In this document: piece by piece, positions 1 to 7,445 of the stretch
Numbering within the stretch: the first letter of the stretch is position 1
How the letters are laid out: each line of letters opens with the position of its first letter
Source of the DNA: an uncultured bacterium
Lineage (GTDB): Bacteria > SAR324 > NAC60-12
Direction: 5' to 3'
Length of the DNA: 22,478 nucleotides
NCBI GenBank assembly: GCA_964010765.1
Contig: CAXGMD010000058.1
Coordinates: 1-22,478, forward strand
Translations under genes and position numbers: made by a program
The notes under the pieces: generated by a model
The model's input: the letters and a program-made list of their open reading frames with translations, nothing else
The model's database searches: none
What the model was told of the DNA's origin: nothing

Positions 1-56
1 AAAAGTATACATTGAGAACGGGTTATTAATGCTTTCATAAGAGTAGTGCTTTTTGA

Positions 57-809
57 TTATGAAGCCCTTAGATGCAAAGTAGCTTGTCGCACTTTTTTAT
101 TTGTTCGCAAGCGATGCTTATCTCCTTCTGAGAGGTTACGGTTTTTATCTGTCAAAACGATATGATTGGCAGACATCCTTCTGTGAAAATCCTTAAATTT
201 TGGTATTAAATCGGGATCTGTAAATGTAGCTGCCGATTGACAGTCACGTGATTTTGAGAGTGGAAATGTTTCCCAAGTTAACTGATGACTATCAATGCAC
301 GCCTTTGCAATCACCTCAGACGTCATTGGAGCTTGATGGTCAGCATGGGTCTCCCAATATGAGATCCACTTGCCAGTAGCAGGACACTGAATTTTCTCTT
401 CCTCGTTCTTCAAATCATCAAACAATACTCTTCTTGCTTCTGTGATTTCTTCCCTTACACAATCACGCATTGCCCCCATAACCAGGATCTTCATTGAGGG
501 AGGTTCACCCTTAATGCAATTGCGATAACTGAAATCTGTTTGACTACCATCGGTGCGTTGAATCCAAAAGCAGCGCTGTGAAAGATCCCCATGATCATCT
601 GGAGGGGCATCTTTAAAGAAAAAATCAATGCCAACACCAATTTTCTGGTCTCGCCCAGGGTGTCTCTCAATCAATGCACGCAAAAATTTCGCATCCTCAT
701 CTTTGACACGCTGCCCCCTGCGATAACTATGGAGCATGGGCATAAAGAACGCTATCGCAGCTTTTTGTGTGTCAAAATATTTTATTCCGAGATCAACTGG
801 TTTAGCCAT
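57..809 (-). CDS. DUF3223/DCL-family protein with putative C-terminal HNH (His-Me finger) nuclease motif
   Basis: N-terminal LIERHP..QKIGVGIDFF...CFWIQRTDGSQTDFSYRNCI matches the DCL/DUF3223 signature. C-terminal CPATG...HADHQAP...NHIVLTDKNRNLSEGDK resembles an HNH core. ATG start with GGAG upstream on the minus strand. Confidence 0.8.
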   Translation of the reverse strand: MAKPVDLGIKYFDTQKAAIAFFMPMLHSYRRGQRVKDEDAKFLRALIERHPGRDQKIGVGIDFFFKDAPPDDHGDLSQRCFWIQRTDGSQTDFSYRNCIKGEPPSMKILVMGAMRDCVREEITEARRVLFDDLKNEEEKIQCPATGKWISYWETHADHQAPMTSEVIAKACIDSHQLTWETFPLSKSRDCQSAATFTDPDLIPKFKDFHRRMSANHIVLTDKNRNLSEGDKHRLRTNKKVRQATLHLRAS

Positions 810-868
810 TGGTATCTACTCTCCTATCTTAATTGAACATTCTTGAGAAAAGCCTTGGTTGCACTTCA

Positions 869-1075: not shown

Positions 1076-1166
1076 ACATAGGGTAGGATGATGGAAATAT
1101 TATAGTCTCTAAACCTAAATCTGATCTGTATTCATCTCATTTCACCAATCCATCCTTGAGCAAGGT

Positions 1167-1574
1167 ATGCAACTATCTCTAGAAGCCCGACAATGCATTC
1201 ATGAACGCTATGAGCGGCAGTCGGTCTCTCAGCAACAACTAGCGGAGGATTTTCAGGTCTCCCTCAGCACGGTGAAACGGATTCTCAAGCGCTCCAAAGA
1301 CGATCTCGGCCGTCGTGCTGGCAGTGGCAACCCTGGGAAGATTCATGAGCGCGAACGCCAGTGCATCGCCGAATATGCCCAACAATACCCCGATGCTTTT
1401 CTGCGCGAATATGCCGACGAAATCGAGAGGATCTGCGGGGTGCGCGTCACAGAGCAAGCGGTCAGTGTGCACCTCAGAAAACTCAAATGGACGCTCAAAA
1501 AAACAGACCCATCTCTCCGGAATCCCTCTCGGAGCGCTGGCAGCAACAGTGGCAGCACTTTATCGCGGAGTTGA
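1167..1574 (+). CDS. IS630 transposase OrfA (HTH DNA-binding part)
   Basis: HTH SQQQLAEDFQVSLSTVKRIL, second HTH YPDAFLREYA, and WTLKK at the A7 run (1497-1503). Confidence 0.88.
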   Translation: MQLSLEARQCIHERYERQSVSQQQLAEDFQVSLSTVKRILKRSKDDLGRRAGSGNPGKIHERERQCIAEYAQQYPDAFLREYADEIERICGVRVTEQAVSVHLRKLKWTLKKTDPSLRNPSRSAGSNSGSTLSRS

Positions 1575-2119
1575 CCCAATTGCTGCAGGAACCCAAGGTA
1601 GAGTTCCTCTGGGGTGACGAAACGGCTCTCTACGATGACTGGATTCGCCACAGGGCACGAGCTCCCGTGGGACAACCGGTGGAGAACTTCAACCATCAGC
1701 GAACTCAACCCAGGAAACAAACTCTCATCGCGGCGATGAGTGCTGAAAAGGTCTTTGCTCCCTGGTGTTTTGAAGGCTCGCTGGAGAGCGACAGGATGCT
1801 GCAGTGGTTGCAACAATTGCGGCCGCAGTTGCACGAAAATCACGTGCTGATCCTCGACAATGCTCGGCCACATCATGCCCGCAAAGTGCGAGAGTACTTG
1901 GCCGAGCATCCGATCCGGATTTTGTTTTTGCCACCGTATTCACCTCAGATGAATCCGATCGAAAAGCTGTGGGCGGCGATCAAGCAACAGTAGCGACAAC
2001 GACGGGTTCGTGGTTTTCCTCAACTGCGAGCCACGCTACAAGCCGACCTACAGCAGATCGTGGAGAAGAGCGGAAAAGCGATTGTGGCCAGTTGTGGCTA
2101 TAGCTTAGTTTTAAATTGA
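1497..2119 (+). pseudogene. IS630 transposase OrfB (DDE catalytic domain, -1 frame) with premature TAG at 1991-1993
   Basis: WGDETA, ILDNARPH, FLPPYSPQMNPIEKLW. After the TAG the frame stays open for 41 codons, ending ...VASCGYSLVLN-TGA (2117-2119) inside the right IR. Confidence 0.85.
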
Positions 2120-2971
2120 GAGACTATATTATCCGAAATAAAGGAAAACATAGCGATTCTACTTAGAGACAACTTTAGTGGAAGAGAGTTAGTGGATTTT
2201 TGCAGTGAAAAAAACTACTTAATCTTAAGATAAAAGAATATAAAGAAGATGTCGACTGGGCCTCAGATGGTGGTAGAGGTAAAAGATCATGTTTTTTCGG
2301 TAAATTAAGTAAATTAAATGAAGATGAAAAGGAGAAAGATCTGATTATATTTTGCGAAGAAATACTAAATAGATTTGGTGATCAAATTGATGCAGATGGA
2401 CCACCAAATCAAATTGAACACATAAGCAGATTAAAGCAATTTCTAAATCAAAAAAGGCAAGAGATTGATTTAAAATTCTTAATTTTCGCTGCGAAAGATC
2501 CTAAACCAGCTATTGTTTTTAAGAATTTTTTATCTCTTGAAGGTTTAGAGATTGTGGAAAGAGGCGGGGATCACCTACTCTTTAAAGAAAAAATTGGGGA
2601 AAATGGTTTAATGTGTAGAGATCTTCAGGAATGGTGGGTCACAACTCAATCTGCCTACACCCAACGGCCAATTCCAGATGAAATATGGCGAAAACAATGG
2701 GAAGCATTGAAAGAACGACTCATATCTAGCGTCGGTTCTAATTGTGAAAAGATCTTAATGGAAACTTATTTTTCGGTGTTACATGATTACAATTACGAAT
2801 TACCCGCACTTATTCCTCAAGCATACTATCAATGGCTCACTACTTCCCTAAAAGAGCTAAACAGTGAGTATTCTTTAGTAGCTCAGAAAATGGATTTTTT
2901 AATAATTATTAAAAATAGACTTGTAAACATTGAGGTTGATGGACCACACCATTATGCCGATGGTGATTATT

Positions 2972-3142
2972 ATACCCATGGAAAAGACTGAAGCTATCGT
3001 TTTAGAAATAGGAAAAGAACTTGGAATAAAAATCATTGGTTCTTATAAACCTGAAATATTTGGATGTAAAGAAGAAGAATTCTTTGACTTTCATCACCCC
3101 AAAGCTGTGTGTCTAGCTCGACTTGGGGAGAGAAATTTCTAA
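2972..3142 (+). pseudogene. 3' remnant of a probable SGNH/GDSL-like (DxxHP) protein
   Basis: Frame reads IPMEKTEAIVLEIGKELGIKIIGSYKPEIFGCKEEEFFDFHHPKAVCLARL. DFHHP resembles SGNH block V. No N-terminal portion is present; the left boundary is approximate. Confidence 0.4.
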
Positions 3143-3276
3143 AAGACATTTTAGAATGAGATGATTTAATTCAACAAGCTGCTGCTGCAGGAACTGATGC
3201 TTCTATTTCACTTTATTGATCTGGCATGTATTCACGTTAAAAAAACTTGCTCTCATCATTATCTCAATCACTGATA

Positions 3277-4326
3277 TTACTTTAAATTAGTCACTAATTT
3301 AAATGCGTGGAAATTATCGAACTGTACGAGAAAGTCCGCTTGCTGCTGGATTTGATTGACTTCCAGATATTCACCATAGAGTCTTCCTTCCCCCTTGAGA
3401 TAAGTCTTCACGAAATCTGGATTGAAATCGCTGCGCTCATCCAGTTCGAATAATCGCGCCGCTGCCGCCTTGGGAGTGAGATCCAGTACGATCTTTATGT
3501 CCAGTAGTTCCTGTATTCCAGGTACAAAGATCGTCGTTCCCCAGAGCAATACCACCATCTCTGGAGCCCAAAACAGTGGGTACGATGATGTTTCACAGCC
3601 TTGCAGAAAATCGGGTTCATCAATCACAGTCACAGTCTCCCCAGCGGCATAAGGACGCAGCAGTGTATCAAGAATCCATTCTCGTTCCCGGGGCGCTCGC
3701 CAATAATCGGCTGCCGTTGAATTCTTGTGCTCAGGGCTCAGCAACTCCAGCAAATCAAAACCGCCAACCAATATCCCCTGTTCTTCCAGAGCTTCCAGCA
3801 ATTCTCCCACAAAATATGCATGTCCACAGTCATCTGGGCCACCAATGCCAACCAGTAGTGGCTTGCTAGGGGCCTCCTGTTTGCTTTTCAGCAGTTGTTC
3901 CGCTATCTCTAGAGTCGTGTTGCGGCTGGGATGAAAAATTTGCAGCAGGTCTTCAATACGGGGACAACAGAACCCATTGGGAACAAGGACCGGTTGCCGA
4001 CTAGCGAAATGGGCAGACTGATCCTGTAACCAAGCGTGAAGATTGGCGCGATCCGTGACCCAGAAATGATCGGCTTGGCCCAATTGAGGATTGCGACGAC
4101 CACTGCTTTCGGGAGATCCAGAAACAATGGAAATTCCCAAGAATTGCTGCCAGTCGTTGGGAGAGATTTCTTCTCCCAGTAACACCAAGTGAAAATCACG
4201 TTCCTGCAGTACCCGTAGGAGTTCACGAAAATTTTCCCACTGTTCCTGACTGAATTCACCTGTCAGACTATCAAGATCAAAGACCAATGTCTGAACTCGT
4301 GCCGGATGGAAGTCGGCCGTTTTCAT
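3277..4326 (-). CDS. Hypothetical fusion: HAD-like N-terminal domain + uridine-kinase-like P-loop domain (degenerate)
   Basis: TLVFDLDSLT resembles HAD motif I. LLVGIGGPDDCGHAYF sits at the Walker A position but lacks GKS/T. LLDIKIVLD and QQADFLVQ are typical of uridine-kinase-like tails. Confidence 0.6.
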   Translation of the reverse strand: MKTADFHPARVQTLVFDLDSLTGEFSQEQWENFRELLRVLQERDFHLVLLGEEISPNDWQQFLGISIVSGSPESSGRRNPQLGQADHFWVTDRANLHAWLQDQSAHFASRQPVLVPNGFCCPRIEDLLQIFHPSRNTTLEIAEQLLKSKQEAPSKPLLVGIGGPDDCGHAYFVGELLEALEEQGILVGGFDLLELLSPEHKNSTAADYWRAPREREWILDTLLRPYAAGETVTVIDEPDFLQGCETSSYPLFWAPEMVVLLWGTTIFVPGIQELLDIKIVLDLTPKAAAARLFELDERSDFNPDFVKTYLKGEGRLYGEYLEVNQIQQQADFLVQFDNFHAFKLVTNLK

Positions 4327-6200: not shown

Positions 6201-7445
6201 CTACTGCTGAGTTGCAGCCCACCAGGATTGCAACACTTTGGTGAGCTTATCGACAGTTGGCAGCTCTCGGAAGGAAAAACCAAAGGTCTTGAAGTAACTG
6301 GAAGTCTCCAAGGCAACACCGAGCTCCGGATTCTTCGAGAGGCTATTGCTGACGCCTAACAACAAGGGAACGCCTTGAACCTCCTCCAATTGCTGCAGTC
6401 GCTGTCTAAGCGGGCCTGCGTGCCAACCATGAAAGAGTTCAAGAGCAACCGAAGCTCCTGTCTGATGCTGCAGGACAAAATCTGGAAAGCAGTAGCGATC
6501 CCCTGGCAACGGCACAAAGCTGCCGGCAAGCTCCAACTGCCACTCTGGTTGACGCTCCTTTAAGCGGTCACTAATCTGTTGAAATTCTGGAGGTACATAA
6601 TCGTGGAATTGTTGGTAGTGCGAACGGATTCCACAACTCGGATCCAGCTGCAACTGAAGCGGTGGTTTCTGTCGGAAGCAGACCGTAGCTCGCAACTGCC
6701 AATTCTTCTGTTGCAGGATTGCGGGGAAGAAATTGGCTAATTGCAGTCCGTACTTCTGAGTTTTGTAGAACAGGCTCAGTGGACCATCAATCCGAAGCTG
6801 AAAGATGCCCTGTTCATCCGTTGTGATCTGGGCCAGCAATTGGTGAAAGCGCAGGTACTTGCAGAGCTGGCGCAACGGTCCAGGGTCTGGGTGTTCCAAC
6901 CGCAGTTCCAGAGCCTCTGAATTCAGCAGGAGCCCTTGTACCTGTCCACAGTTGTAGCGATGGAGTAGAGTCTCTGCTCCAATGGGCGAGAATTGCAATA
7001 AGCGCTGCTGAACCGGTAGGTCTGCGTAAAGGGCTTCCTGAATCTGTGCAACTGGCTGACTTTGCAGAATCTCAACACGTTTCCAAAACTCTTTGAGATT
7101 GGGATTCAAGGCTTTGGCTTCTTCACGCAAAGCTTGACGCGCCTGAATGAAGATCGACTCTCGGAAACGTTGCTGTTCTGCTGGGTCTCCAGTGTCAAAT
7201 TCGGATCGATCCAGCAGCAGCTTTTCTAATCCGCGTCCAATTGGATTATCGAGTTGCTGGCTTTGTAATTGGAGTGAGGTTTCTTCGGTGAGTTCTTGAC
7301 GCGTCGAGCCGGCTGCGGAAGCCTGCCGAAAAACTTCTACGAGGGCTTCCGCGGCTCTCTGTAAAGAAGCATCATCTGGATCCAAAAATTGAGGATAGAT
7401 TTTTCCCTTACGACTACGGAATCGCAGCAAATCTCGCGTTAGCAA
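6201..7445 (-). CDS. DUF790 family protein (Bax1-like predicted nuclease)
   Basis: MLTRDLLR start, LYADLP, LLHRYNCGQVQGLL, IDGPLSLFYKTQKYG, and C-terminal FPDF...LELFHGW PD-(D/E)xK-like motif. Confidence 0.85.
   Translation of the reverse strand: MLTRDLLRFRSRKGKIYPQFLDPDDASLQRAAEALVEVFRQASAAGSTRQELTEETSLQLQSQQLDNPIGRGLEKLLLDRSEFDTGDPAEQQRFRESIFIQARQALREEAKALNPNLKEFWKRVEILQSQPVAQIQEALYADLPVQQRLLQFSPIGAETLLHRYNCGQVQGLLLNSEALELRLEHPDPGPLRQLCKYLRFHQLLAQITTDEQGIFQLRIDGPLSLFYKTQKYGLQLANFFPAILQQKNWQLRATVCFRQKPPLQLQLDPSCGIRSHYQQFHDYVPPEFQQISDRLKERQPEWQLELAGSFVPLPGDRYCFPDFVLQHQTGASVALELFHGWHAGPLRQRLQQLEEVQGVPLLLGVSNSLSKNPELGVALETSSYFKTFGFSFRELPTVDKLTKVLQSWWAATQQ

Follow-up and report, generated by a model that had tools for sequence, protein, structure and literature searches.

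A DUF3223 protein of the HamC family with a putative SciA-like HNH module, encoded without neighbouring hamA or hamB in a low-GC islet of an uncultured bacterium

DUF3223 proteins have been linked to bacterial defence through Hachiman, of which 379 systems (3.8%) were reported to carry a DUF3223 gene, named HamC, up- or downstream of hamAB, an arrangement named type II (Payne et al. 2021, PMC8565338). The function of HamC in defence was stated there as unknown, the Rhodospirillum rubrum protein Rru_A0810 (PDB 2K0M) was counted as a HamC, and the accessible text of that paper contains no description of a C-terminal nuclease-like module of HamC. Later Hachiman papers (PMC11914072, PMC13064477) mention HamC only in their introductions, as far as their accessible text extends, and, among the papers naming DUF3223 that were listed, titles and abstracts connect a bacterial member with defence only in the PADLOC paper and in one Hachiman paper. 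In plants, the DUF3223/DeCL domain of AtDomino was reported to bind RNA at nanomolar affinity and also a protein partner (bioRxiv 10.64898/2026.01.19.700320), and among phage nucleases, the SciA endonuclease of phage T5 was reported to nick the phage's own genome (PMC3517423). This paper describes a bacterial gene in which a DUF3223 domain is joined to a putative HNH module with likeness to SciA. The gene lies at positions 57 to 809, on the minus strand, of a 22,478-nucleotide stretch of DNA (the window), which forms the start of contig C58 in a genome of 3.86 Mb (266 contigs, 92% complete).

The protein belongs to the family that PADLOC labels HamC and has two domains; the interpretation modestly favoured here is that it is a self-contained nuclease that most likely serves as a one-gene defence system or in conflicts between genetic elements. 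In the mechanism proposed, the C-terminal module would be a divergent His-Me (HNH) finger of the T5 SciA nickase type, in which H158, at the end of the first strand, would serve as general base and activate the water, with D157 and N225 as ligands of a single divalent metal. Such a module would make nicks or cuts in nucleic acid, in DNA as SciA does, and the DUF3223 domain would supply recognition of a target or partner. The gene would have been carried on a small horizontally acquired islet, beside an Abi-like gene that has since been destroyed by an insertion sequence (IS). The protein is an orphan variant, new in itself, of a known uncharacterised family, and not a new kind of protein. The open reading frame (ORF) is intact in the ORF list of the window, with an ATG start and 250 codons plus a stop codon, and the features of the gene are as follows.

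57..809, minus strand: gene for the DUF3223 protein with the putative SciA-like HNH module; intact by ORF and translation, matched by PADLOC HamC2 profile PDLC00202, ratio of non-synonymous to synonymous substitution rates (dN/dS) 0.23 from a single pair
510..809, minus strand: DUF3223/DeCL domain, residues 1-100 (Pfam PF11523; PDB 2k0m by sequence, VIA-align and Foldseek)
87..500, minus strand: residues 104-241, a long helix (106-133) and a predicted SciA-like beta-beta-alpha (HNH-like) module (AlphaFold2 (AF2) models; VIA-align to 9qgx_A)
384..386, minus strand: codon C142, conserved Cys aligned to the first Cys of the SciA CxxC motif (column count; HHalign to SciA C29)
336..341, minus strand: codons D157-H158, closing strand 154-158; metal ligand and general base in the proposed mechanism (conservation; HHalign register on SciA H41-H42)
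183..185, minus strand: codon H209, near-invariant His in the inserted helix 201-213 (column count; invariant in a 28-sequence alignment)
135..137, minus strand: codon N225, in the helix that follows strand 217-221; candidate ligand of the metal (conservation; domain model)
821..825, minus strand: AGGAG ribosome-binding motif, 11 nt upstream of the ATG (direct reading of the sequence)

A preliminary description, made from the letters alone, had noticed a DCL signature in the first ~100 residues, and this was borne out by Pfam PF11523 (DUF3223), which matches residues 25-99 with an E value of 3.8e-22 (79 bits against a cut-off of 21), and by phmmer, which retrieved PDB 2k0m (E 4e-15) as well as the C-terminal domains of the largest subunits of plant Pol IV and Pol V (NRPE1 and NRPD1 chains, E 1e-9 to 2e-6). 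The AF2 model of the full-length protein, built on a 28-sequence alignment, has a mean pLDDT of 89 and a pTM of 0.80, and it matches 2K0M in Foldseek (E 1.4e-7, TM 0.80 on the target) and in VIA-align (Z 13.9, 102 residues aligned, rmsd 3.2). Rru_A0810, the short-form DUF3223 protein of the 2K0M structure, shares 39% identity with the N-terminal 100 residues but is only 104 residues long and is without the C-terminal module. The plant DeCL/DCL domains, found at the C-termini of the Pol IV/V largest subunits, in AtDomino and in DCL, belong to one Pfam family with the window domain, whereas the proteins that carry them are eukaryotic, act in RNA biogenesis and silencing, and display no HNH-like fusion in the records examined.

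The two-domain architecture is shared by relatives of the protein. A search with residues 101-250 against 1.84 billion representatives retrieved 148 proteins at E<=0.001, nearly all of which were matched at about residues 95-235 of proteins of 215-270 residues. Conservation was assessed in an alignment of 115 sequences, consisting of window residues 131-250 and 114 relatives chosen from the search matches, from which most short fragments and a few long outliers were omitted. The motifs that had been pointed out earlier (CPATG, HADH..P and N...N) are present as C142-P-A-T-G146, H155-A-D157-H158-x2-P161 and N215...N225-L-S, and their conservation is well beyond chance: H158 is found in all 115 sequences, D157 and P161 in 114 each, H209 in 113, C142 in 112, T or S at position 145 in 110, and H155 in 96. 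Position 225, located in helix 222-228, is Asn in 104 sequences and His in 10, and the His and Asn of the putative active site are thus conserved among homologs. Active sites of the H-N-H/N kind show this pattern, an Asp-His pair combined with a last position occupied by either Asn or His. In nucleases of the D-H...N type, such as T4 endonuclease VII and the HNH domain of Cas9, the Asp and Asn hold the metal and the His at the end of strand 1 activates water. The same catalytic logic is proposed for the window protein, in which H158, preceded by D157, is placed at the end of strand 154-158, the expected general-base position of HNH enzymes. T4 endonuclease VII and Cas9 HNH gave no detectable sequence match or top-ranked fold match to the window protein, and they are not known to have the long helical insert.

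An AF2 model of the domain alone (residues 131-250 on the 115-row alignment) reached a pLDDT of 93. It contains strand 154-158, which ends in D157-H158, followed by helix 164-174, a loop, helix 201-213 with H209, and strand 217-221, after which helix 222-228, carrying N225, follows directly; the arrangement is beta-beta-alpha, and the two strands are separated by ~55 residues of helical insert. This order favours the register proposed in the preliminary description, in which the DH pair ends the first strand and the Asn follows a long insert. The models were compared by VIA-align with 48,161 PDB representatives, and the tool warns that a Z below 8 may reflect a common arrangement. With the full model, rank 2 after 2K0M was 9qgx_A, the SciA(H42A) endonuclease of Escherichia phage T5 with 10 bp DNA (Z 5.9, rmsd 3.6, 103 of 121 residues aligned, model 104..241), and with the domain-only model the same chain was rank 1 (Z 4.6, 78 residues aligned, model 10..105 on chain 27..108), followed by rank 2 at Z 3.4. 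HNH-type nucleases occupy 6 of the 50 rows for the full model, namely 9qgx and five enzymes at Z 3.3-4.0 (Gme HNH 4h9d, GVE2 HNH 5h0o, the retron HNH 9n6b_F, McrA 6ghc and PtuB 8ee7_C), and the domain-only comparison also returned CAD and the beta-beta-alpha-Me enzyme Hpy99I at Z 2.8. Moreover, the ESM Atlas neighbours of residues 131-250, with DUF3223 clusters excluded, include viral clusters of PF01844 HNH (0.86), PF26848 Phage_T5_Nicking_endo (0.85) and ICEA (0.85).

SciA (PDB 9qgx and 9qgv; PF26848 according to the Atlas and precomputed annotations) is the best structural match to residues 104-241 outside DUF3223, and its gene was located in T5 by identity to the PDB chains (ORF 105346-105798, minus strand). 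The elements predicted for the window protein follow the same order as those of SciA, from an N-terminal helix through Cys-x2-(Cys/Thr)-Gly, a strand with the catalytic His at its end and a helical insert to a second strand and then a helix with a metal-binding residue. From 74 SciA homologs collected, 35 were aligned, and conserved positions are C29, C32, H41, H42, C90, H93, H94 and H98. In the HHalign register, which is not significant, C142 falls on C29, T145-G146 on C32-G33, D157-H158 on H41-H42 and the next helix on a SciA helix; this alignment and the structural one share their first residue pair (model 10, chain 27), and H42 is the residue mutated in the 9qgx crystal construct. The proteins differ in that they have no significant sequence similarity, SciA has no DUF3223 domain, the motif is D-H...N in the window protein and H-H...H-H in SciA, and the insert of the window protein is ~15 residues longer. 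Of the four Cys positions of SciA the window protein has lost three, and from the zinc CxxC...C and H-H/H-H motifs of SciA only C142 and H158 are matched in the window protein, the other positions being T/S, D and N.

Several results weigh against the assignment of the module to the HNH enzymes. Each VIA-align Z to an HNH enzyme is below the trusted range (<8), the full-model row of SciA stands just 0.7 Z above the next, unrelated row, and the ESM Atlas scores are all below 0.9, which makes them leads only on the scale of that tool. Foldseek against PDB returned 2k0m only, and no nuclease, for the full model, and nothing at E<=0.001 for the C-domain model, for which PII-like and ferredoxin-like rows were on top. 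Pfam HNH families (PF01844, PF13391 and related) gave no match at E<=10 for the C-domain of the window protein or of two relatives, nor any at E<=1 for the whole protein; NCBIfam had no match for the window protein; and PDB sequence searches with the protein and with the 115-sequence profile retrieved DUF3223 chains only. HHalign of the C-domain against the SciA family was not significant (probability 8.6% for a profile of 11 sequences and 3.4% for that of all 115, the latter with a pairwise P of 0.013), the C-domain HMM (hidden Markov model) found nothing at E<=10 in the whole T5 genome, and the residue roles proposed for D157, H158 and N225 are inferred from secondary structure and alignment ranges. 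When the C-domain profile was compared by HHalign with each of 229 T5 ORFs, the best was 13% over 19 columns of an HNH homing endonuclease, and SciA was second with 1.8%. Pfam applied to SciA itself gave only HNH_2 at E 1.2, which leaves its motifs and its PDB name as the grounds for classing SciA as an HNH enzyme.

The HNH interpretation of the preliminary description therefore stands in part: the two-domain fusion, the conserved residues and the predicted fold fit a His-Me finger, but the assignment is unproven, with Pfam, Foldseek and HHalign negative. Likewise, the beta-beta-alpha fold that had been expected for the C-terminal region agrees with the predicted elements and with the VIA-align match to SciA at Z 4.6, but Foldseek returned no HNH enzyme. 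The SciA fold match is suggestive, not proof, and it is considered probable that the module belongs with SciA-like His-Me fingers, is of the D-H...N type and has lost its zinc cysteines; catalytic activity of the putative module is somewhat less probable than the fold.

Alternatively, the C-terminal module could be a non-catalytic binding domain resembling a treble clef or zinc finger, and the protein a nucleic-acid-binding regulator or adaptor. FYVE, RING and LIM zinc fingers (Z ~3) make up many of the domain-only fold rows, a match to HNH at the sequence level is missing, and DUF3223 proteins elsewhere work via binding of RNA and protein; moreover, F164, kept in 111 of the 115 sequences, is Ser in the window protein (F164S), which also speaks against a nuclease. 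Zinc ligands, however, are largely missing, as C142 alone is conserved and its CxxC partner is T/S in 110 of the 115 sequences; the near-invariant Asp-His pair and N/H position form the pattern of an active site rather than of a scaffold, and SciA, the best match, is an endonuclease. A non-catalytic module is accordingly regarded as improbable. The same protein gave a homodimer prediction score of 0.32 against a mark of 0.42.

The putative nuclease was compared with the known HamC proteins. Five PADLOC profiles labelled 'HamC2|HamC', including PDLC00202, PDLC00205 and PDLC00206, match the window protein, and the best, PDLC00202 (E 6.1e-47), aligns residues 1-224 with positions 1-229 of its 245, so that this profile already takes in the C-terminal half. 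The preliminary description had called the bacterial role of DUF3223 unknown; defence catalogues nevertheless already list the family, as PADLOC files the protein as HamC (E 6e-47), the name given by Payne et al. 2021 (PMC8565338). The protein is thus like the HamC of Hachiman type II in its strong match to HamC2 profiles that span both halves; it differs in that its gene has no neighbouring hamA or hamB, and in that the Hachiman-linked genes sampled here are of the short, single-domain form.

It could be argued that the protein is a genuine Hachiman type II HamC that works only with a hamA and hamB located elsewhere, unassembled or unlinked. The strong HamC2 matches fit this explanation, as do the 92% completeness of the genome, its 266 contigs, and the end of the contig 56 nt past the stop codon of the gene. 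Pfam HamA, PADLOC HamA2 and PADLOC HamB2 found nothing in the whole 92%-complete genome; the HamB2 model matched in 11 of 14 control genomes, which argues against a missed hamB, whereas the HamA models matched in none of them, and both HamA negatives are therefore unvalidated and leave the HamA searches without a positive control. The genes adjoining the DUF3223-HNH gene include no HamA or HamB: upstream lie an IS and a divergent gene, and past the contig end, where contigs of the same population extend for 3.6-8 kb with small unrelated ORFs, none of 22 ORFs matches PADLOC (E<=0.001). Furthermore, HamA/B were found in none of 15 other long-form loci, and all nine Hachiman-linked DUF3223 genes in the sample are short ORFs (95-157 aa). 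The context of the gene does not fit Hachiman, and a role that depends on a distant hamAB is highly improbable.

The neighbourhoods of relatives were collected in a one-genome-per-species scan that gave 40 loci; the scans were pattern-based, and yielded a biased, non-random sample without a background control for enrichment of neighbourhoods, which tempers the support that they lend to a defence role. The short form comprises 21 loci with ORFs of ~95-157 aa, for which one or two immediately upstream genes were compared with PADLOC (with L024 and L031 left out), and in 19 of the 21 an upstream gene matched at E<=1e-15. The upstream genes are HamB in nine loci (with HamA also confirmed in six), BstA in four, LmuB in two, PDC-S13 in two, PDC-S05 in one and MzaA in one, with none in two. 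A short DUF3223 gene follows directly behind BstA (L016, L026, L030, L041), LmuB (L038, L039), PDC-S05 (L015) and PDC-S13 (L018, L019), and one is found near MzaA (L028).

The long form was defined as the 17 loci matched over at least residues 7-210, of which 10 were examined (L002, L003, L004, L005, L007, L009, L017, L020, L034 and L040), while seven from Microcoleus were left out, with the same ORF pattern as L005. The 69 neighbouring ORFs at these 10 loci include no HamA or HamB, and neither was found at five further long-form loci, three from 401 genomes of the phylum of the Calothrix locus L003 and two from viral contigs. In L040 (4595-8681) a complete Gabija pair, GajA and GajB, precedes the long-form gene, which starts 20 nt after GajB, and a SIR2-like gene lies further downstream; in L034 the long-form gene starts 31 nt after an AbiEii-like gene. 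The gene in L002 is 1.5 kb from Hma genes and adjoins a small terminase gene, that in L003 faces a gene for a 1083-aa DEAD-box helicase, and matches to PD-T7-5, PDC-S34 and PDC-S19 are found nearby in L004, L007 and L020. Other long-form contexts do not favour defence: the Microcoleus loci are syntenic, between XisH/XisI and TerC and beside an ABC transporter, the gene lies among metabolic genes in L068, and two contigs from IMG/VR carry relatives in replication or late-gene modules, one between a PolA-like gene and tail genes (L053:5986-6672) and one between DnaB and Prim-Pol (L054:2692-3407), where the gene appears split into two ORFs. The gene of L017 is likewise located among housekeeping genes. 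PADLOC labels 'mad3' for an ABC-transporter ATPase in L005 and 'LeoBC' for an Era-type GTPase in L009 are generic and were discounted as evidence of defence. As separate observations, a gene for a DUF5615 (PIN-like) protein adjoins the long-form gene in three cyanobacterial loci (L009:7243-7551, L066:7448-7846 and L067:7521-7859), and a HicA/HicB pair occurs near the long-form gene in L066.

Taken together, these loci give a consistent picture in which DUF3223 looks like a terminal accessory shared promiscuously among several defence systems, and in which the long form usually stands alone. Unrelated systems with a DUF3223 gene attached number at least six in the loci sampled (Hachiman, BstA, Lamassu, Gabija, PDC-S05/S13 and Mza). 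Apart from Hachiman, these include Gabija for the long form and BstA, Lamassu, PDC-S05, PDC-S13 and Mza for the short form, which suggests that the label 'HamC' is too narrow. The anti-phage role suggested in the preliminary description has neighbourhoods as its only support, and those of the long form are mixed.

Distribution and selection bear on the same question. The only genome among 40 relatives that has the gene is G005, of the same genus, and its copy (L055, G005:C152:1240-1949) is a pseudogene, with a frameshift, a split over two frames and in-frame TGA stops. The C-domain was found in 2 of 88 genomes of the phylum of the organism, the source genome included; in the phylum to which the Calothrix locus L003 (genome G088) belongs, 401 genomes were sampled and 8 had it. 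Each of the six genomes checked (G000, G088-G092) has a single copy of the gene. The distribution is rare and patchy, and the gene is accessory. Both halves are under purifying selection: comparison with the 92%-identical copy of L047 gives a dN/dS of 0.23 for the whole gene, with 0.25 in residues 1-100 and 0.21 in residues 101-250, values that derive from a single pair with 22.5 synonymous and 21.5 non-synonymous differences.

These data also bear on the possibility that the protein is selfish or of phage origin, either a site-specific nickase or an HNH endonuclease of the homing type, in which DUF3223 would be only a nucleic-acid-binding module and the gene would persist by mobility or as a remnant, without protection of the host. 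Its closest structure is that of a phage nickase, T5 SciA, relatives occur on the two IMG/VR contigs and next to the small terminase gene in L002, and the patchy distribution, the pseudogene in the same genus and the low-GC islet beside an IS also speak for such an element. Yet a pattern-limited scan of 2.9 million viral contigs confirmed only two relatives, the gene is single-copy in the six genomes, the synteny of the Microcoleus loci across species suggests vertical inheritance rather than homing, DUF3223 by itself is tightly linked to defence operons, and the window contains no phage structural genes. A selfish nickase is considered unlikely.

If the favoured interpretation of a one-gene defence or conflict nuclease is extended, DUF3223/DeCL might be a general plug-in sensor or adaptor of prokaryotic immunity rather than a component of Hachiman, and the long form a version hard-wired to a SciA-like nickase, a one-protein immune system that couples recognition to DNA nicking; this extension is speculative and rather unlikely. 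Were it true, the target of recognition would be RNA or a nucleic-acid intermediate, and a bacterial conflict module would have a common ancestor with the DeCL domain found in plant Pol IV/V and DCL. The putative active site of the long form (D157, H158 and N225) makes HamC/DUF3223 testable, a single protein of 250 residues could serve to assay both sensing and cutting, and the protein gives a bacterial way into the study of the DeCL domain of plant Pol IV/V, which is poorly understood. Should the nuclease call fail, it would be one more orphan member of an uncharacterised family.

The DUF3223-HNH gene is located in a 3.5-kb low-GC islet at the border of conserved DNA. GC content is 0.40-0.42 over positions 1-1000 and 0.36-0.38 over 2001-3500, versus ~0.47-0.55 in most of the remaining window, which agrees with the earlier description of the gene as intact in an AT-rich island. 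Upstream of the gene, the islet contains two further features.

1097..2132, plus strand: IS630-type insertion with two overlapping transposase ORFs, 1167..1574 (HTH, helix-turn-helix) and 1361..1993 (DDE_3) (Pfam)
2127..2991, plus strand: remnant of a divergent 292-aa neighbour gene, 5' end cut by the IS; remaining ORF 2554..2991, 145 aa

The IS630-type element is bordered by 34-nt imperfect inverted repeats at 1097-1130 and 2099-2132. The DUF3223-HNH gene is also present, at 92-100% protein identity, on six metagenome contigs from this population; one of these (L046) lacks window positions 1104-2126, from which it follows that the IS insertion is recent and polymorphic. The divergent neighbour gene is intact in L046 (6847-7722, minus strand), where it encodes 292 aa; its product has 266 aa in both L042 and L044 but only 145 aa in L045, as in the window. 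Pfam and PADLOC gave no match for this neighbour. In the ESM Atlas it scored 0.93, with 193 features shared with AbiJ_NTD3 clusters, some of which carry DUF559, and by these language-model features it looks like an AbiJ_NTD3/DUF559 protein; one homolog is labelled a very-short-patch-repair (vsr) endonuclease by its source. The preliminary description had placed the DUF3223 gene beside another nuclease gene, for which the vsr label of one homolog speaks, but ORF 2554..2991 is a 3' remnant without a Pfam or PADLOC match. Before the IS insertion, the islet may have been a two-gene defence spot.

On the other side of the DUF3223-HNH gene, the ORFs carried by the population contigs past the contig end include GYD-domain, SnoaL-like and Omp85-like ORFs, among others. 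In L044, two identically scoring GYD-domain ORFs (3248-3571 and 6314-6637) were seen downstream, in an extra segment of ~4.7 kb that is missing from L046. The GYD repeat and the heterogeneity of the population may explain the assembly break.

A scan of positions 1-1200 for promoters and terminators was uninformative, with two promoter-like sites versus 3.0 expected and no terminators. Metatranscriptome contigs from four runs in three studies labelled marine or seawater match, at low depth and with >=99% identity, parts of positions 1-1100, some of them within the gene; contigs of this kind are no proof of transcription, and gaps in their cover carry no meaning. A prophage context for the window was ruled out, as its 22 kb hold no phage structural genes. 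A 349-aa ORF in the low-GC islet (3277-4326, minus strand) has no Pfam, NCBIfam or PADLOC match. Beyond the islet the window is core chromosome, with genes for a sugar transferase, a DUF790 protein, glutathione peroxidase, a type III PKS (polyketide synthase)-like protein, a FemAB-like protein and a DtxR-type repressor, followed by ruvC, yebC and a gene for a MiaB-like radical SAM enzyme, and then by rplQ, rpoA, rpsK, rpsM, secY and more ribosomal protein genes. The DUF790 protein (E 1e-73) is encoded just outside the islet, at 6201-7445 on the minus strand.

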